The notes below the pieces were generated by a model. That model did no database searches. It was not told where the DNA came from and worked only from the letters and a program-made list of their open reading frames with translations. A DNA stretch of 64,000 nucleotides from Dehalococcoidia bacterium (GTDB lineage: Bacteria > Chloroflexota > Dehalococcoidia > Lucifugimonadales > Australimonadaceae), in NCBI GenBank assembly GCA_965247635.1, contig CBDFHJ010000010.1:261918-325917 (forward strand). The letters run 5' to 3'. The position numbers were made by a program, and so were the translations under genes. Positions 22,929 through 46,377 of the stretch are shown one piece after another; within the stretch, counting starts at the first letter, position 1, and each line of letters begins with the position of its first letter.

Positions 22929-22943
22929 ATCAAGGAGGTTACA

Positions 22944-25920: not shown

Positions 25921-26004
25921 ACGCAAGGCACGGTGGGGACCGCAAGACAACAGCCTGGGGAATGCTACAATCCTCCCCACAACGCTAGCACGGAGCGAGG
26001 AGCG

Positions 26005-26592: not shown

Positions 26593-26710
26593 AACTGGAC
26601 AAAATCAAGAACTTTCACCTTAAGGTTCAAGTTGGCGCTATAGCTAAGCACTCACAAGGGACCAAGATTTGCCACGACACAACAAAATGCGCGTTAGCGG
26701 CCCGCAGAGG

Positions 26711-27316: not shown

Positions 27317-27318
27317 GG

Positions 27319-27660: not shown

Positions 27661-28034
27661 CAGCGCTAGCCCGAAGACGTAGCGCAGACGCCGGAGCTTA
27701 AAGAACGTGGCATTTTCACTCTAAGACGCGCCTCACCAACGGAGGATTGGCCTACCTTTAGGCCATCATTCTACCATTTCGGAAACATGAAATCTGATGG
27801 ATAGGAGCACCCTGATCGGATATAATCTAACCTGGGTTTGCCGCTTCTTCCTGGGGGAATAGGGTCCAGTCTTCGTAGTTCCCCTAGTGGCTTCCTCCAT
27901 CGGGCTTATCCGTGACGGCGGCGCAGGCTTCAACATGGGGGTGTGTATCGCATGAACGCCAGAAGGTCCTCAGCAGGCATGTTCTGCCCCGACCTTCAAC
28001 GGTTCGAATCAATGGTATTCCGACTGGCTTTTAG

Positions 28035-28754
28035 GTGAGTGAATTGAGGAATCAGAAGCGTGGGACTAGGGCGGCGGTGGTTGGTGGCGCTGCAGGCCTC
28101 ATTCCCGCTATCGCGCTGGCCTTCTACTCGTTCTTGTCACAGGAACCCGATGTCGCCGAACAGCGTGTGGGCTATGTAGTGTTGGCCCTGCTCTTCCTTT
28201 CGCCGTATGTACTGGCGCTCATTGCCTCTAGGGTGCGAGAACCTGGTGTACGTGGTGGACTGCTTTTGGGTGTAGGTCTGCTGTCGTTGGTCGCAAGTTT
28301 CTCAACTCTCTCGTCACTCTTTTTCGTTTTTCTGCCTGCGACATTCGTGATTTGGTTCGCCGCTATCAGAAGTCTAACTGTCGCGCGGCGCCCGTTGGCG
28401 ACTGTGGCACCAACTACTGTCGCTGGGATGTTGATCGCTGCGATCGTGGGATTCGGCTTCTTTTCTCTGTTATGGATGCAGAACCAGGACTCGGAGGTTC
28501 GTTGTTGGGTGCTGACTCGAGGCCCAGACGGACACTCCAGTTGGGAGTCACGACCCAACGTCGGGGTCCAGGGGAGTGTTAGCGTCGGAGCCATAGGTGG
28601 CGAGCGGTCCAAATGCATCAGCGGCGTCATCACCAACTCCGAGGCCGCGATGAGTATTGGTGCGGTTGCCATAGCTATCCTGGGTATGTTGATGGTGTCA
28701 AGGTGGTCAGGACATCTAGGACGGCCCAGCTACGGGGAATCCCGGCAGCTCTAG
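28035..28754 (+). CDS. Polytopic membrane protein, unknown function
   Basis: 239-aa ORF with a GTG start and several hydrophobic spans. Confidence 0.55.
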   Translation: MSELRNQKRGTRAAVVGGAAGLIPAIALAFYSFLSQEPDVAEQRVGYVVLALLFLSPYVLALIASRVREPGVRGGLLLGVGLLSLVASFSTLSSLFFVFLPATFVIWFAAIRSLTVARRPLATVAPTTVAGMLIAAIVGFGFFSLLWMQNQDSEVRCWVLTRGPDGHSSWESRPNVGVQGSVSVGAIGGERSKCISGVITNSEAAMSIGAVAIAILGMLMVSRWSGHLGRPSYGESRQL

Positions 28755-29218
28755 CATTTCCTTCTATACGGATAGACGTTCACTTCCTAGATACCCAATC
28801 ATATCCAAGCCCACAACCCACGAGTACCGTCATTCTCCCTTGCGGTTGCCTGTAACCATTAACCTGGCGGCCACGGCAACGCCCGCCCCCAGGTGAGTGA
28901 AATCCTGTGGCCCACTTCGAAAGGTGCTGGTAGTCCGGTCTCCACCTGCACCGATACGACCGGATCGCTTCAGTGAGGGAACGCTTTCTTGGTTTGAAGC
29001 GTACTATCAAGTGGGGGCTCATCTGAACGCCGCAGGAGATCGCCGCAGTGGGGGCGGACGAACATCACGGTCGGCTTCGTTGCTATCGGGGAACTTTTCC
29101 TTGAGCCGATGCGTCATACTTATTATGGGCTCACTTGGAAGCAGGACGGCAGTCGCGTGTCGGTACGGGGGCTTTCCTGTGGCGACGCAATATCCGATAG
29201 AGAGGGACGGTCTATACG

Positions 29219-32200: not shown

Positions 32201-32368
32201 GACGGCGACGCCGCCTTTCTGCCACCGGGGACGGCTATACACAGCGTCGATGGCCATTCACCGTCCGAGACGCTCGCCGCAGCGGTGGATGGAGAGGTGT
32301 GGTTGTTCAGAAAGTCGTCTCCGGGCCCTTCAACCCCTACGCCTGTTGTCGTGCCTCGCAAGCCCTGA
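29219..32368 (+). CDS. Large secreted protein (1049 aa) with duplicated ~185-aa terminal domains
   Basis: Signal-like N-terminus (LLVLLMLVSAAC) and a Thr/Pro linker. Residues 83..267 and 855..1035 are clearly homologous (RLDLGGDVVVAF..VAYVTHVPSGSQL vs RLDLDPKVVVAF..IAYVTHVPSGTQV). Confidence 0.7.
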   Translation: MRLHSKELGLSGRLGVPKLGIVGGLLVLLMLVSAACDDKAQPTGPTATQESPGTGTQTQQVATPTTTPSPHVPGSITPAPASERYRLDLGGDVVVAFVEGLSPEHSGKVAYVTHVPSGSQLVLDPAGRTVERHDGRGDGPSRLDGVLEGEDKMERILQGLQGDESLRSRASAADWFHAIQFDGITYLAKGSLGGPIITEGERALTIDDLGSELYRVAFRIDGYGGHFHQDGDATYLNPGTPVYEVKGYAPEFRLAALEDGRARLFEADTNTAAKTGEDLLDIRGKVTFIDINSEMNSIKVLGTKEEDEEDVVLGTIEEGRAVERFVELVLESPVDQGRRDHEGPRYFLNFRLADGTSVVRAFWLESGELSRGIMTDPLVATLVRSALGKEGGTQSANRQWGGGTGIRLSAPSAAVQQSVAGNRIQLPQAVEQAFAAQPSPDWNLVEAPGLGDQPGFSLRLPRGWELRETRPLDSYVGELVGDGVVLRFDYGRFSSSLDPAGKLETIYVLGYEDIGGYEAKLVIPLKASGGLTGVHFRAMDGLRLTVSGEDLTPEQQRTAFAIFRTIRSANRTADGSSEEPGASKSTSRLVIRRGPMSVTHEGIDYEAVAGPIREELLDVDRLEPTQLALNDSGLRDSKGGRVYLLPGVPLEQGFLVRSTEQGLYKDIWYLDPETAYPVCQPGARNYFYVAEGTSPTPSSVPGTDTPTIATDLSSEGLLDAGWPLVNMANLRIEFRGVEYNYVDHSHFGGYVQIEELETLAIDYHLDFGPLPSPALQEIATGATVQDRIRIYRLPKRPVGEVILVSQCPGDLHGQQFVYYRQTGLHRKYTSEAPKLAATPTPEPLHPGTKRTMPPDHVRLDLDPKVVVAFIDDDDRGRIAYVTHVPSGTQVALDAESNVFEKHSGSTAGDRAINMALRDADVRERIRRGLQYEGDLPGNAIMDWVNFIRFGGHEYLSKARRGGGDQVEESRLGEVLYRVAFHVDANLVPGDYRPRDGDAAFLPPGTAIHSVDGHSPSETLAAAVDGEVWLFRKSSPGPSTPTPVVVPRKP

Positions 32369-32428
32369 TGTCCAACTTCCAGGACGTTGAGATCGTCAGG
32401 CAACGGTCGGGCTAAGGAAGGTATCGCC

Positions 32429-33061
32429 ATGAATAGGAGGACAGCCATTGTCTTATCCACTACCGTCGTGCTGCTGGCTGTGATCGGGACGACAGCATTA
32501 CTAGCCCAACGAGCGGATAACCCGCCGCCCAACCCGCACGTGGTCGAACCAAGCCCGATCCCGGAGGTCGTCGATCTAAGCCAGATCAAGGAGGACGTGG
32601 TCAAGGAGCTGTTCTACAGTAGCGGAAGAATGATAAATCCGGATAGGCAGCTAGCCGAGGTGGCGAGGGATCACGAAGGCGGTTTCGGTGGCTACTACTT
32701 CGCCGAAACTGACAAGAGCATCGTCTACGTCTACATGCTGGACGTTACGAAGACAGCTGCTGCTGAGGCCGCCTTCCACGCAGCATATCACGGTGATCGT
32801 GAGATCACCCAGATAATCCCGGTTCAAGGCGACTACTCTCTCGACCAGTTGGTCGAGTGGTTCTACATCCTCGACAGAGCTTTGATTGAGAGCGGCATAC
32901 CCCCGGCCAGGGCATCCGTGCGGGAGATCGAAAACCGCATCCGGATCGGACTGTTCGATGCGGCTCAAATCGACGATGCTCTGCACATAATGGAAAGGCT
33001 CGGGATTCCCGAAGGGGCTGTAGTGCTTAATGAAGACTACCTAAGACCGCTCGCGGAGTAA
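32429..33061 (+). CDS. Secreted/anchored hypothetical protein
   Basis: ATG at 32429 after an AAGGAAGG SD, with N-terminal hydrophobic segment TAIVLSTTVVLLAVIGTTALLA. Confidence 0.6.
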   Translation: MNRRTAIVLSTTVVLLAVIGTTALLAQRADNPPPNPHVVEPSPIPEVVDLSQIKEDVVKELFYSSGRMINPDRQLAEVARDHEGGFGGYYFAETDKSIVYVYMLDVTKTAAAEAAFHAAYHGDREITQIIPVQGDYSLDQLVEWFYILDRALIESGIPPARASVREIENRIRIGLFDAAQIDDALHIMERLGIPEGAVVLNEDYLRPLAE

Positions 33062-33067
33062 GGGAAC

Positions 33068-34942
33068 GTGAGGGCGAAGTGGAGCTTGCTATTGAATATA
33101 CTGTTGACGGTGATGGGCGTAGTCGCGTTCAGTTCACTCGTCGTCGCCTGCGGGACAACAGACGAGCCCGAAACCGCTCGGCCCACAGCCACAGCGGAGC
33201 TTCTCACTGGTGCAACCGACGCCCCTGGTGATGGTCCCCTCACCGCCGCAGAGATTCTTGCTCATGCTCAAGGGGCGATGGACCGGCAGAGCTTCCGGGG
33301 AAGCTTCGCCTTCGCACCCTCCCGGCCTGCGCCAGTATTCACCTATGCTCCAGGCCTCACTCTCCTTCAAGACATAGGTGGCGATTGGCCTCCATTCCTC
33401 CTCCTTTCCAACGGTACGGCCTTGTCCTCTGAGAGTGGCACTCGTTGGCTAACGTCGCCTGACAACTCCAGCTCTGGACTCTTCTTCGGCGTCATTTCAG
33501 ACCCACGGGTCGCACTACACTTCGCCGATTCTCCAGAGATCATCGGGGAGGAAGCCATCGACGGTCGTACGTACCTGATCGTGTCCACGGGCCTCGACGT
33601 ACAGGCTATCCTGGATATGACGCCTCCCCTGGAGTCGCACGTCCGCACTAGTATGAGCTTCCCGTACCCGGAAGGGGCCGACGCCCAGGAGCTTGAGGGG
33701 CTGGGCTATGAGGTGTTCGGCCACCTGCTGGAGGACTCCGCCAAGTGGGAGGCGTTCAAGGGACCCTACCAGCTGAGCTTCTCCGAGCGGGCCGACCGTC
33801 CAGGTCAGCCCCGAGAAGAATGGAACGTACGAGTCACCGTCATCGTCCAGGGGATCACCACGTTGGAAGCTTCGGCGAAACAGGAGCTCCGGGCAGCCCT
33901 GGAGGGCTACGGCGCCGACCCGGACCTCGTCGAGAACATGCGCGTCATGCCCGTTGCCCAGGACGCAGGTGAGTACATTAGTCAGCAGCTACAGGAGGTG
34001 AGGGTCCGGCTATGGATAGACCCACAATCCGGCCTGGTGGGTCGCATGGCCATCGGCCCAAGCTTTTCAGACACGGATGAAGTTGCGGTCGGGTTCTGGG
34101 GTTACGATGACGATATCCAGTTGCAAACGCCCAGCCAAGTCATGGAACTCCGACGGGCTGAAGCTCTGAATGGGGTAGCTCGACGGGGCTTTCACGCGCT
34201 CAACGAGGCGCTGCAGCGCTACGAAGAGGAGCGCGGCCACTACCCTGATGCGCTGACGCCCGAGACCTTGGGTGATGCCCTGGAAGCCCTCGGGCTTGTA
34301 TGGCCCACCAACCCGTTCAAAGATGCCCCCGTGCGCCACGCCCCGGGCAGCCCCGGAGATTTCAGCTACACCGGGTATGGGAACGACTACACCTTCGAAG
34401 TACAGGGCTGGGACCACCCGGTGACGTCCAGAACGGCGGCGTCCGGTGAAACAGAGGACGCTCCGAAGGCGGACACGCTGGAGAAGGACTTAGAGTTCAT
34501 CAGGTCCTTGGACTTCCCCGTGTTCTGGCTGGGGCTGAAGTCAGGTGCACCGGACCAGGACGAAGTGGCGCTACTTCCACTGACGTTGACAGAGGCTATG
34601 GCATGCCCACCGGAGCCAGCCTGCATCTGGCCTGTCAGATTGGTCTATGGGACAGAGGAACAAGGTTCCAGGCTCTTGTCGTTCTTGGAAAGACCCCGCG
34701 TTGAGAGCGATACCCCGGAGGGCGAGCAGATGGAGATTGCAGGGCTAAAGGCGACCGTGGCTGTCTCAAAGGAACCATTCCCAGCCCGCGCCGACCTTTC
34801 AGTATGGCAGGCCACTGTGTGGCTGCCAGAGAGCGTCATACGAGTCGCAGCGACCACCATCACAGAGGACCCTGAGGGGAATCCCTTCAATAGCGAGCTT
34901 GGCCTCACTGCCGCCGTCCAATTGCTGATGGAGCTGCGGTAG
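33068..34942 (+). CDS. Putative lipoprotein (624 aa)
   Basis: Signal peptide with lipobox-like VVAC (..VVAFSSLVVACG). Confidence 0.65.
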   Translation: MRAKWSLLLNILLTVMGVVAFSSLVVACGTTDEPETARPTATAELLTGATDAPGDGPLTAAEILAHAQGAMDRQSFRGSFAFAPSRPAPVFTYAPGLTLLQDIGGDWPPFLLLSNGTALSSESGTRWLTSPDNSSSGLFFGVISDPRVALHFADSPEIIGEEAIDGRTYLIVSTGLDVQAILDMTPPLESHVRTSMSFPYPEGADAQELEGLGYEVFGHLLEDSAKWEAFKGPYQLSFSERADRPGQPREEWNVRVTVIVQGITTLEASAKQELRAALEGYGADPDLVENMRVMPVAQDAGEYISQQLQEVRVRLWIDPQSGLVGRMAIGPSFSDTDEVAVGFWGYDDDIQLQTPSQVMELRRAEALNGVARRGFHALNEALQRYEEERGHYPDALTPETLGDALEALGLVWPTNPFKDAPVRHAPGSPGDFSYTGYGNDYTFEVQGWDHPVTSRTAASGETEDAPKADTLEKDLEFIRSLDFPVFWLGLKSGAPDQDEVALLPLTLTEAMACPPEPACIWPVRLVYGTEEQGSRLLSFLERPRVESDTPEGEQMEIAGLKATVAVSKEPFPARADLSVWQATVWLPESVIRVAATTITEDPEGNPFNSELGLTAAVQLLMELR

Positions 34943-34975
34943 AGCACCGATGACGATGGGAAGGGCACGCAAAGA

Positions 34976-35647
34976 GTGAATCGCTGGCAACAATCTGGAG
35001 TTTATACCCTGGGACTGGCGGTAATTCTTGCCTGTGCCGTGGCTTGTTCGGAACCACTGCGGCCACCAGAGAATCTCTCGATGGGGAAGTTCCCAAGTGG
35101 CACCTTCGCCCTCTTGCAGTGGAATAATCCGAACCAACGCGCTATATCATTCGAGTTACAATGGCGGTTCAGCGATGTACCTCACTGGGTACCCCTAGCC
35201 TCCACCCCTCCAGGGGCAACTACGCATCCAGATTCTGGTCCCGGCCATATCGCTGAATGGAACTTCACCGGTTATTGCTATCGAGGGCGCGCGGTACTCG
35301 GCAACTCAACGTCCGAATGGTCGGATGAGTTATGTGCTGACATGGGAGCTGGGGAGCCACACCCACCCCCCTATTGGCCTCCACCAGCAAGGGAAGTGAG
35401 CGCAGAATCAACGGATGGAGGAGTGAGGATAACCTGGGAAGCTCATGACGCTGGGCAGTTCGGCTTACCCGACGCACTGGTACTCCGACGAGAATCAACG
35501 GAGGGGGCATACGACGTCATTGCCACCTTGCCCTACGGGACCTTCGATTTCACTGACGGTGAAGGCGGCCGTGACCACTGCTACAGGATTGGCACGAGTT
35601 TCAGGGACCGAGGGAAGAGTGTCAGTGGAGATGTGTGCCTGCGTTGA
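34976..35647 (+). CDS. Putative secreted protein with Fn3-like repeats (223 aa)
   Basis: GTG start and signal-like LGLAVILACAVACSE. Two segments have beta-sandwich-like W/Y/C spacing. The family call is tentative. Confidence 0.55.
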   Translation: MNRWQQSGVYTLGLAVILACAVACSEPLRPPENLSMGKFPSGTFALLQWNNPNQRAISFELQWRFSDVPHWVPLASTPPGATTHPDSGPGHIAEWNFTGYCYRGRAVLGNSTSEWSDELCADMGAGEPHPPPYWPPPAREVSAESTDGGVRITWEAHDAGQFGLPDALVLRRESTEGAYDVIATLPYGTFDFTDGEGGRDHCYRIGTSFRDRGKSVSGDVCLR

Positions 35648-35716
35648 TACGGACTGATCATCGGGCGACAAAGGCCTCTTCACGGGCAGTTCATCGAGTT
35701 TAAGCGAGGGGCTCGA

Positions 35717-36556
35717 CTACTTCCACCACAGCCCCAGCGTGAGCACACGCCGGACCCACCGCACCAGCGCCCGCCTGGCCCGCTCCCTCTGGATGTTCGC
35801 CAGCGCCCTCTCCCGCCAGTCCAGCTCGGCTCCCCTGGCGAAGTCGTCCAGGGGAGATGTTCCTGGGGGCAGAGTCAGCTTGTACTCACCCAGCATGGCG
35901 ATCTCCAGCTCCATGATCCGCTCCCTGGTCTTGGCCTGGGTGAGCTTGGTTCCGACCTCCCGCTCCTTCATCAGCCGCCGCCACTCCTCAACCAGAGGCA
36001 TCCCAGGACCATATGAAAGCTCTTCGTTGGGATGGGGCTCTTTGGAGATCACGCCGAAACCGAAGTAGCTACTGTGATAAACGCGCCTGGCCTCCCTCCC
36101 TGAATCAGCGGCATTTAGCTCCGCATCCTCCGGTGCCTTCTCCTTGGCTTGCTCCAGCCGAGTGAGCCTGTCCTTCGTCTCGCTCAACGCCTCGTCGAAT
36201 TCGTCGAGCCTACTATTCAGCTCTCTCCAGACCTCAGGGGGTCCGGCTTCGAGAGCGGTGCGCATCTCCTGCTCCAACGCCTCCACACGCCGCTCCATCT
36301 CCTCCATTCTCTGCTCCCGCGAGTCGTTGCCCTCTCGCTGAGAGGCCCCCGCGCCAACCTCTGACCCCAGCCCCCGCTCCATCGCCTCGCGAACCCGCCA
36401 GGAAATACTTCCCCCTTCCATGCTGGCAGCTACCGTCCTGGGGTCTATCTTCAGAGCCGTCGCCGCTCCTCTGACCCCTCTCTGCCTCACCAGCTCACGA
36501 AGCAGCGCCATGAGCCGCTCATCGGACATCTCCTCCATACTCTTGCCTTCGTTCAT
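35717..36556 (-). CDS. Coiled-coil protein with N-terminal HTH-like segment
   Basis: 279 aa from the ATG at 36556, which is preceded by an AGGAGAG SD. Contains LMALLRELVRQRGVRGAATALKIDPRTVAA and a long Glu/Arg-rich heptad region. Divergent from the ATPase gene. Confidence 0.6.
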   Translation of the reverse strand: MNEGKSMEEMSDERLMALLRELVRQRGVRGAATALKIDPRTVAASMEGGSISWRVREAMERGLGSEVGAGASQREGNDSREQRMEEMERRVEALEQEMRTALEAGPPEVWRELNSRLDEFDEALSETKDRLTRLEQAKEKAPEDAELNAADSGREARRVYHSSYFGFGVISKEPHPNEELSYGPGMPLVEEWRRLMKEREVGTKLTQAKTRERIMELEIAMLGEYKLTLPPGTSPLDDFARGAELDWRERALANIQRERARRALVRWVRRVLTLGLWWK

Positions 36557-36647
36557 GATTGACTCTCCTGATTCCATTTGGGCAGCCCCGATGCAATCGG
36601 TGCCTTCCGCCGGAGCCACCGTTCAACGACCCCCACCTCTTCCCGCA

Positions 36648-36659
36648 TGCAACTTGCAA
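36648..36659. promoter_or_regulatory. TGCAACTTGCAA repeat, copy 1 (candidate operator/iteron)
   Basis: The exact 12-mer recurs at 36797..36808. Related half sites (ATGCAACG, CTTGCAAAC, CCTTGCAT) lie between and around them. Confidence 0.35.
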
Positions 36660-36796
36660 AAAAGACCTGAGTTTTGCACATTCTCCATGCAACGCCCCCT
36701 TAACCCCAAATAACCCAAAGTGCTTGCAAACATGACGCTGTCATCATCCTGTAGGGGCTGAATTCCTTCTGAAATGGCCTCATTCACGACTCGACG

Positions 36797-36808
36797 TGCA
36801 ACTTGCAA
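36797..36808. promoter_or_regulatory. TGCAACTTGCAA repeat, copy 2
   Basis: Identical 12-mer 149 bp from copy 1, followed in both copies by an A-rich tail. Confidence 0.35.
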
Positions 36809-36906
36809 CAAAACTCATTTCTCTGTACAGCCCCCTGACCTCAACAGGGGCTCCGATGCCTAATGGCCCTTGCATCTGGAGATTGAATGGCTCACACTAG
36901 TCTATA

Positions 36907-36920
36907 AGAACACATGTTCT
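36907..36920. promoter_or_regulatory. LexA (Cheo-box type, GAAC-N4-GTTC) candidate operator
   Basis: AGAACACATGTTCT fits the core of CGAACRNRYGTTYC (12 of 14 positions, all core positions). It overlaps a TATAAG -10-like hexamer and sits 114 bp upstream of the ATPase gene. Confidence 0.45.
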
Positions 36921-36944
36921 CTCACATGTCCAGGAGGTGACGAC

Positions 36945-37037
36945 ATGGTCCTGCCATCGACTGGCCGGTCAACACAGCGAAATCATGAGAACGAGTACCC
37001 GCTAACAGAATCAAGATACGAGGAGGATCCACTATGA
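36945..37037 (+). CDS. 30-aa upstream ORF translationally coupled to the ATPase gene
   Basis: AGGAGG SD 7 nt before the ATG at 36945. Sequence MVLPSTGRSTQRNHENEYPLTESRYEEDPL. Its TGA overlaps the ATG at 37034 (ATGA). Confidence 0.3.
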   Translation: MVLPSTGRSTQRNHENEYPLTESRYEEDPL

Positions 37038-39646
37038 AACTGAATCCCATTAGTTGGCTGTTTAACCGATCTACACGCAAGGCCCCTGTGCTTCTGTCGG
37101 TGACGTCGCCAAGGACCGGAGAGCGCACCCTGCTGGGGGTGGAGAACTTCCTCAGGTCCATCGCCATTCCCGAGCCCTTCTCCCTGGAGCTGGCGGGGGA
37201 CATGGACGGCGTGACCCTGATGGCCCGATGCCGGGACAAGGAGGTGGTCCAGAATCAGATATCGATTCACTACCCCCAGGCCCGCATCGCCGAGGTGACC
37301 CCAGAGGAGGAGCCCCTGCGTCTGGAAGAGAATGATGAGGCCTGGGGAATGAGCCTGAGGGTGCAGGGCCCTCCCTATGTTCCCCTGAGGACTTTCCGGG
37401 ACGACGACCTTTTGGACCCCGGCTCAGACCCCATCCTCGCCCTCCTAGGGACGATGGCGTCGCTGCGCCCTGGAGAGCGCATGGTGGCCAGACTGGTGCT
37501 GTCCTCCCTGGGACCCGGCTGGTCTCAGCCCTACCTGGACAAGGCTCTGCCGAAGCCCGTGACCGAGCGAAGGGACGCCTCCTACACCTACCAGACCAAA
37601 CCTCTGCAGACCGACGGCGCACTGATGGCCGTCCTGGGTTTGATAGCCCTGGGGTCCTTGCAGGGCTACTTCTGGATGCAGGGCGGGGAGCTGTGGAAGA
37701 CGGTACTCTTGGGCATCGGAGTAGTCGCCGGGACCGTGGTGGCGGGCTGGGGATGGTGGCGTTGGAAGAAGAGGCGATCCCGCGTCTACGACCCCATACT
37801 AGTCAAGGAGAAGGTCTCCAGCCTGGCCTTCGACTCCCACCTCCAGGTTACTGCCATCCTCCCCAAGAGTGATGGAAAGGAGCGGGCCAAGGCGCTCCTG
37901 GAATCGGTGGCGGCAGCCTACCGCCACTACGACAACCTCGCAGGAGCCCATTTCAAGGTGAGCAAGATCAGGCAGGTGGTTCCCACCGCTTCCTTTCACA
38001 TCCCCGGCCCAGGGCTCTTCGGGTCGAGAACCATATTGGGCGTGAGGGAGGTGGCCTCTCTATGGCACCCGCTCGGGGCCAGGGACGACACCCCCCTGGT
38101 GGCGCGCTCGGGGGCCAAGGTACTCCTGCCTTCCTCCGGGGGAGTGAGGGAGGGAGCCCTCATAGGCCACTCCACCGCAGGGACGGCCCAAAGGGACATT
38201 CGCTTCCCCGAGGACCTGCTGCGCCGCCATCACCTCTACGTGGCAAGGACCCGCATGGGCAAGTCCACCCTCATGCACCACATCGTCTCCCACAAGCTCC
38301 AGCAGAAGGCCGAGGGGAAGGACTCCGACGCCATCGTGGTCATCGATCCCCATGCGGACCTCGTTGAAGGGCTGCTCAACCAGGTGCCAGAATCCCTGGT
38401 TGACCGGGTGCGCCTCATAGACCTGGCAGACGACCGGAACGCTCCCGGCATCAACCTCCTGGACAGCAGGGTCTTCTCCGACAGGGACCGCACCGCCGAC
38501 TCGGTAGTGCGGATAGCCAAGGGGTTGTGGGAGCAGTGGGGACCGAGGATGCAGTCCATTCTGGAGCAAACGGTGAAGAGCCTTCACGAGGCCAACGAGC
38601 ACCCTTCAACCGACGCCTCCGAGCAGTACACTATCCTGGACGGGCTGAAACTCCTTTCGGACGACAAGTTCAGAAGCAGGGTCTTGGCCAAGGTCAGCGA
38701 CCCCTACCTGCTGGAGTGGTGGGGCCGGGACTTCCGTAGCTGGCACCGCCAGTACAAGGCCGATGCCCTGGCCCCCGTACAGACCCGGTTGTCCTACTAC
38801 GCCTCATCCAAGAAAGCCAGGGCCATCCTGGGACAGTCCCGCTCCACCATCGACATGCGCCGAGTGATCCAAGATGGTGGGGTGCTCCTGGTCTCCACCT
38901 CCCAGGGGACGGCTGGCAGGGACGTATCGGCCCTGGTGGGAGCCTCCATCCTGAATCTGGTGGACGGCGTGATACGGGAGCAGGGGAGCGTGCCTATAGG
39001 TCAAAGGAGAGGTGTGCTGGTAGTGGTGGATGAGATGCAGTCCATGCCAGGGGTGGACTACGAGGGGATGCTATCAGAGCTGGGGAAGTTCGGGGCTTCA
39101 TTCATCCTGGCAACCCAGAGCCTGGCCAAGCTCTCCGACCTCTCCCGCACCATGCAGGACACCCTGCTGGCCAACATCGGCTGCCTGGCCGTCTTCCAGG
39201 TGGCCGGAGCCGACGCTCGAACCCTGGTGTGGGAGCTGGGCAAGGACCGGGTCTCCGAGGATGACATCACCTCCCTGCCGGTGCACCAGTGCTACGTCCG
39301 AGGCACCGTGGGGGAGGAGCGGATGCCGGCATTCTCAATGAAGGTGCGCAAGCCCGATGAGGGTGAACCCGAGATCGCCGTCCGCATTCGAGCGGCCGCA
39401 TCTTCCTACACCACCCCAGTGAAGGAGACCGTCACCAAAGAGGCGGAGTCGGAGGTGTTGGTGGAGAAGTACAGAGCGGGCATAGAGGCCCTTGAGAAAG
39501 GTGAAGCCCCGAAGTCCGGTAATGGCGCTGCCCCAAAACCAGCCAAGCGGCGCAGGCAGCGCTCCCGTAAGCCCAAGGATGATGTTGGACAGGAAGCGGA
39601 GGCCACCGAAGAGAACGTCTCTCCTAGTGTCGAGGAAGGGCAATGA
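37034..39646 (+). CDS. Membrane-anchored coupling-protein-like (TraD/TraG/VirD4, FtsK-HerA superfamily) ATPase
   Basis: 870-aa ORF with two central TM helices (LMAVLGLIALGSL.., TVLLGIGVVAGTVVAGWGWW). Walker A is ARTRMGKST and Walker B is VLVVVDEMQ, followed by a GASFILATQSLAKL motif as in TraG-D_C domains. Confidence 0.75.
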   Translation: MKLNPISWLFNRSTRKAPVLLSVTSPRTGERTLLGVENFLRSIAIPEPFSLELAGDMDGVTLMARCRDKEVVQNQISIHYPQARIAEVTPEEEPLRLEENDEAWGMSLRVQGPPYVPLRTFRDDDLLDPGSDPILALLGTMASLRPGERMVARLVLSSLGPGWSQPYLDKALPKPVTERRDASYTYQTKPLQTDGALMAVLGLIALGSLQGYFWMQGGELWKTVLLGIGVVAGTVVAGWGWWRWKKRRSRVYDPILVKEKVSSLAFDSHLQVTAILPKSDGKERAKALLESVAAAYRHYDNLAGAHFKVSKIRQVVPTASFHIPGPGLFGSRTILGVREVASLWHPLGARDDTPLVARSGAKVLLPSSGGVREGALIGHSTAGTAQRDIRFPEDLLRRHHLYVARTRMGKSTLMHHIVSHKLQQKAEGKDSDAIVVIDPHADLVEGLLNQVPESLVDRVRLIDLADDRNAPGINLLDSRVFSDRDRTADSVVRIAKGLWEQWGPRMQSILEQTVKSLHEANEHPSTDASEQYTILDGLKLLSDDKFRSRVLAKVSDPYLLEWWGRDFRSWHRQYKADALAPVQTRLSYYASSKKARAILGQSRSTIDMRRVIQDGGVLLVSTSQGTAGRDVSALVGASILNLVDGVIREQGSVPIGQRRGVLVVVDEMQSMPGVDYEGMLSELGKFGASFILATQSLAKLSDLSRTMQDTLLANIGCLAVFQVAGADARTLVWELGKDRVSEDDITSLPVHQCYVRGTVGEERMPAFSMKVRKPDEGEPEIAVRIRAAASSYTTPVKETVTKEAESEVLVEKYRAGIEALEKGEAPKSGNGAAPKPAKRRRQRSRKPKDDVGQEAEATEENVSPSVEEGQ

Positions 39647-41295
39647 CAGGAAAGGATTGCTATTTGGACACCCTGCGGTGCCTGGCCTCCATGCCCTTCC
39701 TTGACCGTCTGGAGTTGGCGGCCCTATCCGGCGGGGCTGACCGCACCACCTACAACGCCGTAGCCGACCTGGAGCGTCGGCGGTTGGCAGCTTCCCTTCC
39801 CCATGCTACAGACCTACTGAGGACGACGCAGCGATTCTATGTCACCGCAGCAGGGCTTCGGTACCTGGCATCGGCGGATGGTATGAGCCTGGACCGGTTG
39901 CTTCACGTCTATCCCGTCTCCGCCCAGTGGCGGCGCATCCTGCTGGAAAGGCTGGACGCGGTAGCGGTGGTCTACCGGCTGGCAGCGACAACCGCTGATG
40001 AGGAAGATGACATAGCCTTTAGATGGTATCGAACAGGGCCGCTGGATGCCGCCATGTCCCTGCCTGGTGGTCGGACTATTGGGATCGTGAGGCAGGGAGC
40101 CACTGCTGACAGGACAGCCTTCGCCAAGAGGCTCTGGAAGCTGCGGGAGGGGCCTCTGCCCGGGGCCGTCCTTCTATTAGCTCCCGACGCCGTGCGTCTT
40201 CACCACGCCCGGAGGTTGCTTGCCGGACTCCCCACGGCGGCCTTTCTAGCCCAAGAGGAGGATGCGGCCCTGGCCGGTTGCGACGATCCCGTATGGCATC
40301 CCCCGTCCATCTCCGCCTCCCTCGACCTCCGCTACATCCTGTCACGCATGAGTCAAGGCGGCACCCTTCCGGAGGACTCTGAGCTCTCACGAGTGACCCT
40401 CCCCAAGGACATCGCCGTGGATGGCGAAGGAGGGGCTGTCCCCGGCCACCTGCTACCCGCCCTGCTAAAGCCCGCCGAGAAGCGCACCTTGGACATTCTC
40501 TCCGACTGGCCCTGGATCACTTCGGTAGATCTGTGTCAGTTGCTGGGCTTCTCTAAAGCTCGGCTGTCCCAGGTCGTGGTTCCCTTGGAAAGGGCTGGGC
40601 TAGTACGGAGACCCTTTGCCGAGGGACGCCGCCTTGCCTTGACCGATAGCGCCATCGACCTCCTGGCCCGCAGGGACCGCGCCGCCGTGGGAGCGGCCAG
40701 GAAGCGCTGGAGTACTACGGGCCTCGACTCACAGGCTCCCACGGACTGGCGTAGGGTTTCGGGAAGGCGAAGCCGCCAGCTCCTCAGGAACATCGATCAC
40801 ACCGACGCCGTGCACGGGTTCGTGGCGACGCTGGCCGAGCAAGCCAGGTCTCAAGGTTGGGAAGTGGCGCAGCTGGACCCCCCTGGACGGGCAGCTAGGT
40901 ACTTCAGGTATGGTGACAAGCTGCGTTCCATTCACCCCGACGCATTCGGAATCCTGCGCAAGAGCGACTATACGTGGCCCTTCTTCCTGGAATGGGAGCG
41001 CCGGGCGGTGCGCCCGGTGACCATGGCGGCACGGCTAGCTCCCTATCTTCGTTACTACTCGTCACACCGGCCCACCGACGACCACGGCACGCAGCCCATC
41101 GTCCTCGTGGTCTTCCACAACGACCTGGCAGAGACCCACTTCCTACGGGTGGCCAGGAAGGAGATGGAGCACGCCAGGGTCAGGGTGCCGCTTTGGGTAT
41201 CCCACAGGAGGTACTTGGAGGAGTTGGGACCTTTGGGACGGGCTTGGCGCACACCCGATAGCTGGGAGCCTACCTATGCTCTTGGGGGAGGGTGA
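39643..41295 (+). CDS. Replication-relaxation (Replic_Relax) family protein, unusually long (550 aa)
   Basis: ATGA overlap with the ATPase gene. Has a MarR-like wHTH (ITSVDLCQLLGFSKARLSQVVVPLERAGLVRR) and an HPDAFGIL..FFLEWERRAV motif typical of the family. A second wHTH-like segment lies near the N-terminus. Confidence 0.6.
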   Translation: MTGKDCYLDTLRCLASMPFLDRLELAALSGGADRTTYNAVADLERRRLAASLPHATDLLRTTQRFYVTAAGLRYLASADGMSLDRLLHVYPVSAQWRRILLERLDAVAVVYRLAATTADEEDDIAFRWYRTGPLDAAMSLPGGRTIGIVRQGATADRTAFAKRLWKLREGPLPGAVLLLAPDAVRLHHARRLLAGLPTAAFLAQEEDAALAGCDDPVWHPPSISASLDLRYILSRMSQGGTLPEDSELSRVTLPKDIAVDGEGGAVPGHLLPALLKPAEKRTLDILSDWPWITSVDLCQLLGFSKARLSQVVVPLERAGLVRRPFAEGRRLALTDSAIDLLARRDRAAVGAARKRWSTTGLDSQAPTDWRRVSGRRSRQLLRNIDHTDAVHGFVATLAEQARSQGWEVAQLDPPGRAARYFRYGDKLRSIHPDAFGILRKSDYTWPFFLEWERRAVRPVTMAARLAPYLRYYSSHRPTDDHGTQPIVLVVFHNDLAETHFLRVARKEMEHARVRVPLWVSHRRYLEELGPLGRAWRTPDSWEPTYALGGG

Positions 41296-41351
41296 AGAGA
41301 GTCACCAAACGGGTTGGTCATCTGGATCATCTTCCCCAATCATGGCAAATA

Positions 41352-41360
41352 TGGTATGAT
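41352..41360 (+). promoter_or_regulatory. Extended -10 promoter element TGgTATGAT upstream of vapBC
   Basis: Sequence only. It lies about 30 nt upstream of the vapB start. Confidence 0.35.
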
Positions 41361-41392
41361 GTACTAAACATGGAATTCATATGAGGTTAGGC

Positions 41393-41608
41393 ATGAGAAT
41401 ATCCGAAAGAGGGCAGATCACCATCCCCAAGAGACTGAGAGATCGCTTTGGTATGAATCAAGATGTCGAGGTGGAGATCACGCCAACCGAGGATGGACTA
41501 CTCATCCAGAAGCGGGCAGCATCCAAGCATCCCGTGGAGAGGGTCAGTGGGATCCTCGACGGGGCTGTCGATGTAGACCAATACATAGAAGAGACCAGGG
41601 GAAGGTGA
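41393..41608 (+). CDS. vapB: AbrB/SpoVT-fold antitoxin (VapB type)
   Basis: MRISERGQITIPKRLRDRFG.. with a GAGG SD upstream. An alternative ATG is at 41381. Overlaps vapC as GTGA. Confidence 0.8.
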   Translation: MRISERGQITIPKRLRDRFGMNQDVEVEITPTEDGLLIQKRAASKHPVERVSGILDGAVDVDQYIEETRGR

Positions 41609-42000
41609 TTACTTCAGTCGATACCAACGTCCTGCTGGACGTATTCATATCCGATGCGCCGCACCACTCCCAATCGCAGGAGTGGCTTACGCACGCCTAC
41701 GATAGAGGAGCTATCCTCGTCTGCGATGTGGTCTATGCAGAGCTGGTTCCGGCCTTCGGTGACCGCTCCTCTTTGGATGGAGCGCTGCGGGAGATCAACG
41801 CAACGATTTCGCCCATTGACACCGATATCGCATATGAAGCTGGACTCCGGTGGTTGCAATATCGACAGGCTGGTGGGCCGAGAGGCCGGATCATCTCCGA
41901 CTTCCTGATAGGTGCCCATGCGTCTGCCAATGCCGACACCTTTCTGACCAGGGATCGTGGCTTCTACGCCACCTACTTCCCAGAGTTGCAAAAACCTTAG
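41605..42000 (+). CDS. vapC: PIN-domain toxin (VapC type)
   Basis: 131-aa ORF with ITSVDTNVLLDVF N-terminal acidic motif and size typical of the PIN fold. Confidence 0.8.
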   Translation: MITSVDTNVLLDVFISDAPHHSQSQEWLTHAYDRGAILVCDVVYAELVPAFGDRSSLDGALREINATISPIDTDIAYEAGLRWLQYRQAGGPRGRIISDFLIGAHASANADTFLTRDRGFYATYFPELQKP

Positions 42001-42019
42001 CCATCAGGAGAACTCAATC

Positions 42020-43681
42020 ATGAAACATAAACAAGCCCTCACACCAGCAGCCCTCTACGCCAGGGTGTCCAGTGACCGGCAGGACGTGGACCTCTCGATA
42101 GCCGCCCAACTCCGGGCGCTCAGGAACTACGCCCAGGCCAATGGCTACATTGTTGCACGAGAATACGTCGACGAGGCCGAGAGCGGGCGCGTCGCCGACC
42201 GGCCCCAGTTCCGCATGATGATAGAGGAGGGGAGCAAGCCCAATGCCCCCTTCCAAGAGATTCTAGTGTGGAAGTTCTCCCGGTTCACCCGCAAGCGGGA
42301 GCATGCTGTGGCCTTCAAGTCCATGCTGCGTAGGAAGGGTGTCAGGGTAGTCTCCATCACCGAGCACGCCGACGACTCCCCTACTGGCAAGCTCATGGAA
42401 GCCATCATCGAGAGCGTGGACGAATTTTACTCGGAAAATCTTGCCCAGGAGGTCACACGGGGTATGCGGGAGGCCGCGTCACGGGGCTTCTTCCTGGGTT
42501 CCAAGGCTCCCTTCGGATACAAGCGGGTCAAAGTATCCGACGGGGCAAAGGAGCGTCCTACGTTGAAGCTTGACCCCGCCACGGCTCCGATAGTGAGGGA
42601 GGTGTTCGAGAGTTCTCTCATGGGTAACGGCCTGAAGGAGATATGCAAGGAGCTGAACGAGTGGGGCATCACCAATAAGGGATGGCGCTGGCACAAGACC
42701 GGCCTTCACTACCTGCTGACCAACGAAGCCTACACAGGGACTTCGGTCTGGGGCAGAACGACGAAGGGTGACAAGGAGCCCGACCCTGTACGAGTGGAGG
42801 GAGCTTGGGAGGCACTGGTCTCAAGAGACTTGTTCGAGAACGTGCAGCAGGGCCTAAAGGAACGCGCGCCGAAAGTGCAGAGACCGGCCCGCGTGGGGAG
42901 CAAGTTCCTGTTGAGTGGGTTGCTGCTCTGTGGTACCTGCGGCAAGCCCTACATCGGCCAGGGAGCCAAGAGCGGTCAGTACGGCTACTACGTCTGCGGC
43001 ACCCTTCACCGGCAAGGGGCAGGAACCTGCCAAGCCAGCTACCTGAACGCTCCCAAAGTGGAGGGCTTCGTCATCGACAAGATTAAAGAGCGCATCCTCA
43101 CCGACGAGACCATCACTGAGCTGGTAACCATCGTCGCCGAAGAGATAGACGCCATGGCCGGGGAGCTTGACGGAAGACTCGGGGCTGTCGAGGCCGAGCT
43201 TGGAGATGTTGAGAGCAGGCTGGGGAACTTATACGAAGCCCTGGAGACCAAGCATCTGACTTTGGAGGCCCTCTCGCCCCGCATTCTGGCCCTGAAGCAT
43301 CGCCAGGACCAGCTCACTGGGGCGAAGGAAGAAGCAGAGAGCCAACTGGAGCAGAGAAGGGTCGATCTACCCGGCACCGAGGAGATCAGAGGTTATGTGG
43401 AGGACCTCCGCACGTGTCTGCAAGAAGGAACGATGCTAGAGCGAAAAGCCCTCATTCGGAACTTCGTGAAGGGCATCGAAATCGTTGGCGACGAAGCTAC
43501 CCTTACCTACACGATACCCATGCCAAGGGATGGGGTGACCAGTGAGGGGGCCTCGGTTCTTGATTTTGTCCAGTCCGGCCCACCAACGTGTACTGAACTG
43601 CGAACTACTGGGCCGTGGAGAGCCACCTCTGCGGCGTCTCCGCCCCCTATCGGGCTGTCCGGCGGCGTGGGTAGGGTGTAG
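42020..43681 (+). CDS. Large serine recombinase
   Basis: ATG at 42020 with an AGGAG SD. Contains ALYARVSSDRQ catalytic motif, a recombinase domain, a zinc ribbon (CGTCGKPY..YYVCG) and a coiled-coil. The longer ORF start at 41957 lies inside vapC and was not used. Confidence 0.85.
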   Translation: MKHKQALTPAALYARVSSDRQDVDLSIAAQLRALRNYAQANGYIVAREYVDEAESGRVADRPQFRMMIEEGSKPNAPFQEILVWKFSRFTRKREHAVAFKSMLRRKGVRVVSITEHADDSPTGKLMEAIIESVDEFYSENLAQEVTRGMREAASRGFFLGSKAPFGYKRVKVSDGAKERPTLKLDPATAPIVREVFESSLMGNGLKEICKELNEWGITNKGWRWHKTGLHYLLTNEAYTGTSVWGRTTKGDKEPDPVRVEGAWEALVSRDLFENVQQGLKERAPKVQRPARVGSKFLLSGLLLCGTCGKPYIGQGAKSGQYGYYVCGTLHRQGAGTCQASYLNAPKVEGFVIDKIKERILTDETITELVTIVAEEIDAMAGELDGRLGAVEAELGDVESRLGNLYEALETKHLTLEALSPRILALKHRQDQLTGAKEEAESQLEQRRVDLPGTEEIRGYVEDLRTCLQEGTMLERKALIRNFVKGIEIVGDEATLTYTIPMPRDGVTSEGASVLDFVQSGPPTCTELRTTGPWRATSAASPPPIGLSGGVGRV

Positions 43682-44966
43682 AAGACCGTCGCCTTTCCTG
43701 GCTTGACCTTGATCTCCTTGACGAAGGACTTGATGAAGGCCCTCGATTCGGTGATTTCGCTGGTCATCAGGAAGTCGCTCATGTCCTCGGCGAAGGCGGC
43801 GATGGTGTCCACGTTGTCCAGCACGGCCCGGCGCTCTGAGAGCAATGCCCTGGCCTCCTCTGCGGCGATCTCCAGCTTCTCCTGACGCTCCCGGTGCTCT
43901 CTGATGCGGGAGGTGGCGTCGGATATGTCGAGTTCCGAGTTCTCGATGACGTGCCACACCCGGTCCAAGCGCCGCCGCACCTCGATAAGCTCCGCTTCGA
44001 TGTTTTCCAGCCTCTCCCGCTGCTCAGCAGCCACTCCGTCCATCTCCTCGTCCATCAGTCTAACCAGGTCCCGGATGTTGCTTTCCGTGAGGATGTTTGC
44101 GCGAATCTGCTCGATCATCAGCTTCTCAAAGCGCTTGGAGTTGAGGCGAGGCGTCTTGCAGGTTCCCTTGCCCTTTTTCAGCAGTGAGTGGCAGACGTAG
44201 TAGCTGTACTTGCCGCTCTTGGCCTCAGCCGCAGTGAGCGCCTTTCCGCACTTCTCACATTTCACCAAGCCGCTGAGGAGGTAGGGGCTGGATGCCCGCC
44301 GGGGGTTGACCCTGGCCGGGGCCTTGGAGCGAAGGGAGCGGGTGATGCGTCGGAACTCCTGCTTGGTGACTATTGCGGGGAATGCGTCCTCCACCCGCAC
44401 CGGTGGCGCTCCGTCCTTGGCATCGACGCCCCAGACCAGCGTTCCTGTATACGCTTCGTTGGAGAGGATGCGGTGCACAGTGGACTTCAACCAGTGCTTG
44501 CCCGTTGGGTGGGGATGCCCTCACCATTCAGCGTCTTGGTGATGTCCAGGGTGCTCTTGCCCTGTAGGGCCATCAGGAAGATGCGCCGGATCACTGATTC
44601 CGCCGGCGGGTCCAGCTCCAGCTTGGGCCGCTTCTTTGCTCCGTCCTGGACCGACACCTTCCTGTACCCGAAGGGAGCGTAGGTGGAGACCCAGAAGCCC
44701 CGTATGGCGGCTTCCCGCATCCCTCGGACGACTTCTTGGGCCAAGTTTTCAGAGTAGAACTCGTCCACGCTCTCGATGATGGCCTCCATGAGCTTGCCGG
44801 TGGGAGAGTCGTCGGCGTGCTCGGTGATAGAGACGACTTTGATACCCCGCTTCCTTAGCATGGACTTGAAAGCCACGGCGTGCTCCCGTTTGCGGGTGAA
44901 CCGTGAGAACTTCCAAACAAGAATCTCATGGAAGGGAGAGTTGGGCTTGCTGGCCTCATCCAGCAT
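43507..44966 (-). pseudogene. Second large serine recombinase, N-terminus removed by IS-A copy 4 and one internal frame break
   Basis: ORFs 44487..44966 and 43507..44490 are paralogous to 42020..43681 but lack the catalytic-Ser region. Its 3' end overlaps the other recombinase gene by 175 bp. Confidence 0.85.
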
Positions 44967-44967
44967 C

Positions 44968-46377
44968 TGTTAGCAACCAGCAAAAGTGGGACACATTGGG
45001 AGCCGAGAGATCAGGGGCTGGATGGAGGTCTGGCGAGCTCCCTGAGGGCCCTGTTGTAGCGTCGTCGCCGTTCGGTGGTTTGAGCCTTCACCTCCTTCCT
45101 GCGTTGTAGGATCTCTTGCCGTCTTCCCTTGAGCACGTCTGATGGTGTCACGTTGCCCAGAGCCTTGTGATAGCGCCGGTAGTTGTAGTAGCTGACGAAG
45201 GCCGCGATAGCAGCCTCAAGGTCGGCGGGCAACTCATAAGGCACCTGGTTGACGTCCCGTTTGATGGTCTGGTGGTAGCGCTCCAGCTTCCCGTTGGTCT
45301 GAGGGTGGAAAGGAGTTGCTAGGATGTGCTTGATGCCAACCATCCCCAGGTAGTCCCTGAATGCTCTTGAGACATAGCCTGGACCGTTGTCACTCAGCAG
45401 CCTGGTGCGGTCTGTGACTGGAACTTGGTCCATGCTGGTCGTGTCCACAGCATCCTGGACCACCTCGATGAAGGAGTCGGCCGTCATATCTTGCTGAAGC
45501 CTGTGAGCCAGGATGAAGCGGGAGTAGTCGTCCATAACGGTGACCAGGTAGTAGTAGCCCCACCCAACCACCCTGAAGTATGAGGCATCGGTGGCCCACA
45601 TCTGGTGAGGTCCTGTGGTCTTGCGGTGGTACTCCTTCCCCGCGGCCAACCGCATCTCAGGCCTCTTCACTAGGCCCTCCCTGCCCAGGATACGGTAGAC
45701 GCTGGACTCTGAGACTGAGAAGCCCTGGTTGTCGGTGATCCCCGCGGCCAGCTGACGGCAGCTCAGCTCTGGCATCTCCCTGGCTGATAACAGGACTGAG
45801 CGTTCTTCCTGAATAGTAAGACGGTTCCATGGTGGCTGATCGCCTCCTGGTCGGTCCTCAAGTCCTTGTTGGTCTTGGCGTCCTGGGGCATGGGGATGGC
45901 CGTTTCTTTGAGACGGTACGCCTCCAGCGACAGATCGGCCACTAGCTCCTTGAGTTCCCCGTTCTCTCGCTTGAGTTGCCCTACCTCATGCTGAGTGGCG
46001 TCCCGAACCGAGTCACGGGTCAACCTCTCCTTGCCCGCCTCCATGAACTCTTTGGTCCACGAGTAGTAGGGGTGGGGCTTGATCCCCTCCCGCCGGCACA
46101 GGTCGTTGACTGTGACCTCGCGGCGGAAGCCCTCCAGAACAATTCGGATCTTCTCTTCGGGGGTGTACTTACGTCGGGCAGCCGCCTTCACTGTGCGGAC
46201 GAAAGACCTGGTCTGCTCGCTTCGTTCCTCGGCGGCCTCTGCTTTGCTTACTTCTAATTGGGACACATCTGCTCCTTTCTGTGGGTAGCTCTACCCTCAT
46301 TTCAGGAGCTCACACCACCCTCCGACTCTCGGGTTTTCCTACCCTTATATGTGTCCCATTATCGCTGACGGTCTACA
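44968..46377 (-). mobile_element. IS-A copy 4 with 135-bp internal deletion fusing orfA to out-of-frame orfB sequence
   Basis: Both terminal repeats are present. The deletion lies between two GACGCCA direct repeats. OrfB (45011..45775) lacks its N-terminal 74 codons. Confidence 0.9.

Follow-up and report, generated by a model that had tools for sequence, protein, structure and literature searches.

The question raised by this locus is what kind of element is formed by a compact group of genes in a Dehalococcoidia bacterium (Chloroflexota; GenBank assembly GCA_965247635.1). The stretch analyzed, referred to here as the window, comprises 64,000 nucleotides (contig CBDFHJ010000010.1, positions 261,918–325,917 of the forward strand) and supplies the coordinates used throughout. 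An original prediction, made from the sequence alone, described a mobile-element-like module at 35717–43681 with a membrane ATPase, a 550-aa replication-relaxation protein, VapBC and a large serine recombinase, and offered as explanations both a minimal integrative, mobilizable or conjugative element and an ATPase-plus-nuclease defense pair. On the basis of the comparisons presented here, the region of ~26594–43586 is, with a probability which we put at about 0.85, an integrative and mobilizable element (IME) descended from a widespread Dehalococcoidia family of integrative and conjugative elements (ICEs) by deletion of their type IV secretion system (T4SS) operon. The earlier view of one integrative, mobilizable module is borne out by the combination of a type IV coupling protein (T4CP), a relaxase and a recombinase in the absence of mating-pore genes.

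The module begins on the minus strand with a gene for a 300-aa coiled-coil protein with an N-terminal helix-turn-helix (HTH)-like motif (35717–36619), followed by a control region and candidate origin of transfer (oriT) at 36620–37033. On the plus strand are found a 30-codon upstream open reading frame (uORF; 36945–37037), whose start is kept in the related loci L001, L003, and L004, the putative VirD4/TrwB-type T4CP of 870 aa (37034–39646; identified by Pfam, motifs, and synteny) and the putative MOB_C relaxase of 550 aa (39643–41295; Replic_Relax, PD-(D/E)XK). These are followed by vapB for an AbrB/MazE antitoxin (41381–41608; Pfam MazE/AbrB), vapC for a PIN toxin (41605–42000; Pfam PIN) and a large serine recombinase, the presumed integrase/excisionase, with an ATG at 42021 (42021–43681). 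All of the previously reported ORF positions, overlaps and spacings agreed with the ORF map and sequence, with the uORF and ATPase genes and the ATPase and 550-aa genes overlapping as ATGA, vapB and vapC overlapping as GTGA, and the recombinase starting 20 nt after vapC. The vapBC pair is a stabilization module and is carried only by the window, L003, and L004, while L001 has a different PIN pair. No homologue of VirB4, TrbL, the pilin or the 679-aa protein was found anywhere in the 64-kb window, in keeping with the earlier remark that no VirB4 or mating-pore genes were visible.

The 870-aa ATPase is predicted to be a coupling protein of the VirD4/TrwB type. With Pfam gathering cut-offs applied (20.5 bits for TrwB_AAD_bind and 25.3 bits for Replic_Relax, PF13814), it matched TrwB_AAD_bind at 25.3 bits, which places it in the T4CP clade, with DUF87 and TraG-D_C falling slightly under their cut-offs. 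Among 35 aligned family sequences, TrwB_AAD_bind was matched by 34 and TraG-D_C by 30, DUF87 matches were also present, and FtsK_SpoIIIE was matched by none. Walker A (GKST, residues 409–412) and Walker B (DE, 666–667) motifs are invariant across the 35 sequences. The two transmembrane (TM) helices and long N-terminal domain that had been noted correspond to hydrophobic helices at residues ~196–214 and 221–243, followed by KKRRSR, downstream of a 190-aa domain. The membrane anchor is N-terminal to the nucleotide-binding domain, as in T4CPs, and the conserved 190-aa domain ahead of it is atypical. This domain defines ~495 clusters at 50% identity with full-length members of 840–1020 aa; T4CP Pfam domains were found in nine of ten full-length carriers tested, and T4SS-DNA_transf scored above its cut-off in two distant relatives sharing the domain. 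Plasmid-borne homologues of the ATPase are annotated as T4SS DNA-binding or TraM-recognition proteins. As a separate observation, residues 373–798 matched phrog_5156 (function unknown, an 824-position profile) at E = 4e-30, and relatives of the T4CP therefore occur in sequences catalogued as viral.

The 550-aa protein matched Replic_Relax at 34.9 bits, inside that family, and MarR_2 at residues 275–330, and PF13814 is annotated on nearly all of its 120 listed relatives. Its PDA...E.ER motif was found to consist of D433, E450, and E452, which are invariant among 36 aligned relatives, as are Y468 and Y471 in the same C-terminal half. Residues 1–255 align to residues 262–550 (hhalign; probability 90%, E = 1.5e-6, 207 columns), and the N-terminal half lacks the D/E/E triad. 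The protein is thus a tandem duplication of a winged-HTH (wHTH)-plus-nuclease module of which the first copy is degenerate, and the doubled wHTH and nuclease-like motif proposed earlier are upheld by this duplication, the MarR_2 match and the invariant triad. The triad also aligns with PD...FFVELER of a Bacillus subtilis plasmid "replication-relaxation family protein," and the two tyrosines after it with two in that protein. The AlphaFold model was confident (predicted local distance difference test, pLDDT, 81; predicted template modeling score, pTM, 0.83). Foldseek returned only weak whole-chain matches, to FokI (8e-3) and otherwise to MarR wHTH domains, and MarR structures were matched by the profile search as well; the Foldseek result is consistent with a relaxase assignment without deciding it. 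No match was obtained by tblastn of the relaxase against 72,556 plasmids, and no CloDF13 ORF was detected with the family hidden Markov model (HMM).

The identity of the 550-aa protein is suggested by published equivalences. PF13814 is treated as equivalent to the superfamily of MOB_C relaxases (PMC5357655, Table 1) and Replic_Relax has been placed in the PD-(D/E)XK fold (PMC3424549). Two MOB_C relaxases, pAD1 TraX and CloDF13 MobC, resemble restriction endonucleases and carry a winged helix at the N terminus (PMC12857230, PMC6736028), and a DEE metal motif has been described for this class (PMC6736028). By the first of these equivalences the protein is assigned, from its sequence, as a probable MOB_C relaxase. 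Together with the evidence on the ATPase this therefore points to a coupling protein plus relaxase rather than an uncharacterized pairing, and the earlier statements that no canonical relaxase was visible and that the roles of the partners were not established can be set aside, since TraX and MobC are recognized relaxases.

At least 550 relatives of the coupling protein were found in a scan of GTDB species genomes. The best 80 of these were all in Dehalococcoidia metagenome-assembled genomes, often in several copies per genome, and were combined with two further loci from an assembly look-up (L001 and L002) to give a comparison set of 82 loci. The relaxase gene lies downstream of the T4CP gene in all 82 (median gap 36 bp), so that the co-occurrence of the two genes expected from the module is general, and a VirB4-like (P-loop_TraG) gene lies upstream in 79 (median gap 47 bp). 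TrbL_3 was identified in 70 loci, T4SS_pilin in 71, a large serine recombinase in 68 and coiled-coil homologues, at the far side of the T4SS operon, in 69. L002 has the full ICE layout, with precomputed Pfam labels P-loop_TraG, TrbL_3, and T4SS_pilin. These loci constitute a ~20-kb ICE family consisting of a divergent coiled-coil gene, T4SS operon, T4CP, relaxase, variable genes and recombinase, in which the coiled-coil gene is a core gene transcribed divergently from the transfer operon. No published description of this Dehalococcoidia ICE family was found in a search of the literature.

This gene order bears directly on two other explanations. The first is that the element is minimal and self-transmissible and moves double-stranded DNA by FtsK/TraB-like transfer without a T4SS, like actinomycete elements; FtsK-like double-stranded DNA transfer was one option in the original prediction. 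Membership of the ATPase in the FtsK/HerA superfamily, shown by the DUF87 matches, and the lack of mating-pore genes would fit such a system. However, the family profile given above is that of TrwB_AAD_bind and TraG-D_C and never FtsK_SpoIIIE, in 79 of the 82 loci orthologues of the ATPase stand as the final ATPase in an operon with VirB4, TrbL, and pilin genes, and a relaxase, which TraB-type systems do not need, always adjoins, making this explanation very improbable. The second holds that the ATPase and PD-(D/E)XK protein are an anti-phage or anti-plasmid defense pair carried as cargo. In its favor are a PADLOC match of ATPase residues 377–755 to mad8 (5.8e-11), a weak Csa3-like wHTH match, the nuclease fold of the partner, and the fact that IMEs often bear defense genes, with type I restriction-modification (R-M) genes in L001. 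However, MADS is an operon of eight genes, mad1–mad8 (bioRxiv 10.1101/2023.03.30.534895), and here the sole match covers only the P-loop core of one of them, the other seven being absent; the neighbors have no other defense-model matches, the pair sits inside conjugation operons in those same 79 loci, annotated plasmid homologues are T4SS coupling proteins, and the partner exceeds the Replic_Relax cut-off. A defense role is consequently regarded as equally far-fetched.

The T4SS block of ~6.5 kb is missing only from the window, L001, L003, and L004. L003 and L004 share 94–96% nucleotide identity with the window and L001 ~77%, and all retain the coiled-coil gene, control region, uORF, T4CP, relaxase and recombinase. 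This lineage has diverged to 78% amino acid identity in the T4CP after the same deletion architecture, and dN/dS was 0.21 (window vs. L001) and 0.11 (window vs. L004) for the T4CP and 0.21 (window vs. L004) for the relaxase, values that indicate purifying selection. The right flanks differ among the window, L003, and L004, and the T4SS-less element has therefore moved. An alternative is that the deletion killed the element and that the remaining genes of an immobile ICE remnant are drifting, which would agree with the loss of the T4SS operon, the insertion sequence (IS)-rich neighborhood with its truncated ICE, and the frameshifted relaxase of L001. Against this, every ORF is intact and translational coupling is preserved in the window and in L003 and L004, the low dN/dS ratios extend over the whole span of divergence, the 19-bp terminal repeats described below are perfect, and copies stand beside different flanks. 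Selection and varied flanks are thus more in keeping with a functioning mobilizable element than with decay, and the remnant explanation is considered unlikely.

The region between the coiled-coil and T4CP genes indicates how the IME may have arisen. A region of 414–434 bp is conserved here in the window, L001, L003, and L004. In the window it contains the palindrome TGCAACTTGCA at 36648 and 36797, and 11 of the 60 TGCAA/TTGCA pentamers of the window fall within 36620–37033; both the palindromes and pentamers are candidate operator or oriT sites and are specific to the T4SS-less lineage. Being confined to that lineage, the palindrome TGCAAnTTGCA was rejected as a family-wide operator. Part of the conserved region matches the ICE intergenic region between regulator and T4SS genes, and the match takes in a conserved box, TTTCTCTGTACAGCCCCCTGAC, at 36818–36839 that 17 ICE loci also possess, 199–318 bp upstream of their coiled-coil gene; the control region therefore derives from that ICE intergenic region. 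A simple scan for sigma-70 promoters and terminators gave nothing over the shuffled background. In its ribosome-binding site and its position relative to the box, the uORF agrees with the gene that opens the T4SS operon of the ICEs, and the first codons are similar (MVLPSTGRST in the window, MAVPPTIRRT in L071, and MGAQSTVRRT in L038). On these grounds the uORF is interpreted as the relic 5′ end of that gene, the stump of a single deletion of ~6.5 kb whose ends would have been at about codon 10–30 of the first T4SS gene and immediately before the gene for the coupling protein. As for the 300-aa coiled-coil protein, the HTH-like motif that had been proposed is conserved, although its assignment as an HTH is weakly supported, HTH_8 matches being sub-threshold and confined to two of five relatives. 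The protein is presumed to be a regulator or accessory protein.

The ends of the element were located by repeat search. The recombinase carries Resolvase (2.6e-32), Recombinase (6.5e-21), and Zn_ribbon_recom (9.1e-15) domains and the motif YARVSSDRQ at residues 13–21, and its best NCBIfam match is CcrB. The attachment target is a tRNA-Val(TAC) gene at 26517–26592 on the plus strand (ARAGORN; Rfam tRNA 76.7 bits), which is intact after integration. The left junction (attL, 26585–26612) consists of GCCCACCAA at 26585–26593, representing the last tRNA bases plus one, and a left 19-bp arm, ACTGGACAAAATCAAGAAC, at 26594–26612, which begins two bases past the CCA of the tRNA. At the right junction (attR, 43556–43586) the right 19-bp arm, GTTCTTGATTTTGTCCAGT, at 43556–43574 is followed by CCG and a further GCCCACCAA at 43578–43586. 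The two arms form a perfect inverted repeat, the same arms occur in L001 at 675–693 and 16810–16828, and the arm recurs beside recombinase 3′ ends in ~20 loci. Homology to L001, L003, and L004 stops at 43584–43598. The element therefore extends from about 26594 to 43586 and measures ~17 kb, not 8 kb; the left boundary formerly sought near 35650–35716 lies 9 kb further left, at the tRNA-Val gene. The recombinase ORF crosses the right junction, so that flanking DNA supplies its final ~30 codons. When the IME was removed in silico, tRNA-Val with its CCA was joined to ACGTGTACTG, which is the exact junction of tRNA-Ile or tRNA-Ala with an ICE in L002 and L006. That these are the ends of a transposon, with inverted repeats at the termini and a target duplication of 9 bp, was considered and rejected, as the GCCCACC core flanks independent copies and there is no DDE transposase.

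Several points weigh against this interpretation as a functioning IME. No excised circle or empty site was found, and two metagenome scans, for an attP-like arm-spacer-arm arrangement and for the left end, gave 0 matches each. The tRNA stands at the recombinase-distal end in the window, an unusual orientation, whereas L002-type ICEs and apparently L001, L003, and L004 have a tRNA or T-arm-like sequence at the recombinase end; no tRNA was recognizable in the flanks of the latter three by ARAGORN or Rfam. For oriT there is a candidate region only, 36620–37033. The relaxase of L001 is split by a frameshift, which could result from decay or from an error in long-read assembly. When PDB sequences were searched with profiles of the ATPase family, no T4CP, FtsK or HerA was returned even at E = 10, and the AlphaFold model of the 870-aa ATPase, in which residues 484–598 between the Walker motifs are all-helical, was unusable (pLDDT 49.5) because the alignment of 35 sequences was too shallow. 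Finally, members of the ICE family are numerous in the class, several to a genome, but the only copy visible beside the IME is truncated and dead.

That copy lies immediately outside the IME, at 43587–46266 on the minus strand, where one end of a second ICE, inverted and of the L002 type, is found. Its recombinase (43561–44969) shares 97–98% identity with the L002 enzyme but has a frameshift and is truncated near residue 67 by an IS3-family element with ORFs at 45011–46266. In the simplest history, an ICE would first have integrated at the 3′ end of tRNA-Val and the IME would then have recombined into that same GCCCACCAA core, with the tRNA on one side and the ICE on the other.

A number of observations were made on these sites in the wider family. 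The 3′ end of the ICE recombinase ORF overlaps a convergent tRNA gene in 15 loci, among them L002 (19856–19932) and L006 (19856–19931), the other 13 being L008, L023, L025, L027, L028, L033, L040, L046, L050, L056, L061, L078, and L080. The tRNAs overlapped are for Ile, Ala (three anticodons), Lys, and Val. Recombinases that are 97–98% identical stand at tRNA-Ile (L002), tRNA-Ala (L006), and tRNA-Val (the remnant in the window), and from their sequences such near-identity suggests that more than one tRNA is targeted. Tail-to-tail pairs of serine recombinases, linked by the 19-bp arm together with a GGCCCACC/GGTGGGCC core, were seen in at least six loci (L053, L055, L059, L067, L082, and the window at 43556–44969), and the core is found in either orientation between similar flanks when the window is compared with L008 and L059. 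Directly past the right arm and core, L001 (16829–17053) and L003 and L004 (16542–16567) have T[A/G]AG..GA.TCGAACC, resembling an antisense tRNA T-arm. In L001, a second copy of the arm follows 195 bp on and then the reverse complement of its own left flank. The proposal that the right flanks of these three loci are tRNA or tmRNA genes was dropped, as the T-arm-like GGTTCGAGTCC is present but ARAGORN and Rfam were negative.

If the element is an IME, its retained parts, namely the divergent and probably regulatory coiled-coil gene, control region, T4CP, MOB_C relaxase, VapBC and serine recombinase, would be expected to act in four steps. The recombinase would first excise the element through the two sites with 19-bp arms, within the GCCCACCAA core, giving a circle and restoring the tRNA-Val 3′ end; the predicted attP junction of the circle is ...GTTCTTGATTTTGTCCAGTCCG GCCCACCAA ACTGGACAAAATCAAGAAC..., and at the predicted empty site ...CTGCTCCGCCCACCA would be joined directly to ACGTGTACTGAACTG.... 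The relaxase would then bind by its wHTH domains and nick one strand at oriT, probably within 36620–37033, by means of the metal site formed by D433/E450/E452 in its one active nuclease domain. In the third step, the coupling protein of the IME would hand the relaxosome over to a T4SS supplied by an ICE of this family in the same cell. The last step would be integration of the element by the recombinase at a tRNA 3′ end of the recipient.

Restriction-fold enzymes are normally dimers that cut both strands. It is tentatively proposed, as a joint reading for which the odds are rather against, that the fused pseudo-dimer relaxase and the tRNA-3′-end-reading recombinases are more than decoration. 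Under this proposal the covalent dimer of one live and one dead relaxase domain would be a built-in nickase, and the recombinases may read the 3′ end that nearly all tRNAs share (...GCCCACCA) by way of symmetric 19-bp arms. If true, the former would account for the cutting of a single strand by a MOB_C relaxase, a matter flagged as unresolved for this family in a review of T4SSs (PMC12857230), and the latter might enable near-identical enzymes to use tRNA-Ile, -Ala, and -Val, insert either way round and build tail-to-tail arrays.

The remainder of the IME, at 26711–35647, is cargo coding for six predicted envelope proteins, recognized by signal peptides, lipoboxes and TM segments in their translations. 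These comprise a 201-aa protein (minus strand), a 239-aa protein with multiple TM segments, a 1049-aa lipoprotein containing an internal repeat (29544 and 31851), a 224-aa protein, a 624-aa lipoprotein and a 223-aa lipoprotein, and none of the six had a Pfam, PADLOC or PHROG match. Related but rearranged cargo genes are found at the same position in L003 and L004, whereas in L001 this place is taken by type I R-M and toxin-antitoxin genes instead of envelope cargo.

To the left of the IME, positions 1–21700 of the window form a field dense in insertion sequences, with some copies split. These include Mutator-type (565–1810), DDE_Tnp_1 (5414–6166), and IS1-like (20837–21691) elements and IS3/rve-type elements at 2673–3299, 4250–5053, 6407–7270, 12869–13717, 15339–16166, 17483–18385, and 18654–20194. 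Among them lies a gene for a 1329-aa protein (7636–11625, minus strand) made up almost entirely of leucine-rich repeats (LRR_8 E = 1.8e-83). A gene with HTH_3 and Peptidase_M78 (IrrE-like) domains and a 163-aa ORF without a family match follow at 21783–23435, and a similar M78 gene, adjoining DUF4411, is part of the IME cargo of L001. The G+C content rises to 0.70, compared with ~0.59 elsewhere, at 25001–26000 over an epimerase gene just upstream of Usp and tRNA-Val. ORFs of 441 aa are located just past the IME in L003 (16995–18320 and 21192–22517), and one of the same length is located in the window at 62265–63590; these may be the same insertion sequence.

The CloDF13 arrangement pairs the MobB coupling protein with the MobC relaxase. 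The IME resembles CloDF13 (MobB/MobC) and pAD1 (TraX, the prototype of MOB_C) in having its own T4CP and a restriction-endonuclease-fold MOB_C relaxase and in its predicted borrowing of a T4SS. The wHTH and the D/E/E metal site are likewise shared (PMC12857230, PMC6736028). It differs from both in that it is integrated and is not a plasmid, that its relaxase is twice as long, and that a 190-aa domain precedes the T4CP TM hairpin; in addition, no sequence-level match to the CloDF13 ORFs was detectable. Homologous DUF87 ATPases are also found on small Bacillus plasmids such as CP121709 (24% identity, hmmsearch E 4e-21). On the B. subtilis plasmid, the homologue lies ~0.5 kb upstream of the gene for the "replication-relaxation family protein," which shares the PD...ExE motif and two tyrosines with the window relaxase and is followed by conjugal-transfer genes. 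However, these ATPases are only 412–451 aa and lack the N-terminal domain and TM hairpin, and the relaxase is single-copy and of 295 aa.

Among chromosomal elements, the IMEs of streptococci and other Bacillota likewise combine an integrase, often a serine recombinase, with a relaxase, with or without a T4CP, and have no mating pair formation genes, and the Rel_PF13814/MobC class is listed among them (PMC5357655, PMC5704250). Unlike these, the IME of the window is in Chloroflexota, targets a tRNA 3′ end and can be traced to a specific ICE family by a single deletion with a relic uORF. The ssrA islands of Dehalococcoides, which belongs to the same bacterial class, use a CcrB-like large serine recombinase (DsiB) and a tRNA-like gene 3′ end, with arrays beside the target, but carry no relaxase or T4CP, have an unknown transfer route and differ in their tmRNA target, 20-bp direct repeat and second small recombinase, DsiA (PMC3146451). 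The parental ICEs, with P-loop_TraG, TrbL_3, and T4SS_pilin, can be likened by gene content to the monoderm-type (MPF_FATA-like) T4SSs of Patescibacteria, where MOB_C is the commonest relaxase and often lies beside t4cp (PMC12102498). In contrast to those systems, the Dehalococcoidia T4SS clusters are complete ICEs with relaxase, T4CP, and integrase.

The element is therefore of a recognizable kind, an IME with a T4CP, MOB_C relaxase and serine recombinase, in a little-studied class, and does not represent a new mechanism. Gene-transfer routes in Dehalococcoidia have been largely unknown so far, the ssrA islands without known transfer machinery being one example. If the interpretation as an ICE-derived IME holds, an abundant family of conjugative and mobilizable elements is documented in uncultured soil Dehalococcoidia, together with a clean natural case of the conversion of an ICE to an IME by a single deletion in which T4CP and relaxase have been kept under selection. 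Current understanding is not overturned, but the duplicated MOB_C relaxase and the N-terminal domain of the T4CP provide testable leads for biochemistry.

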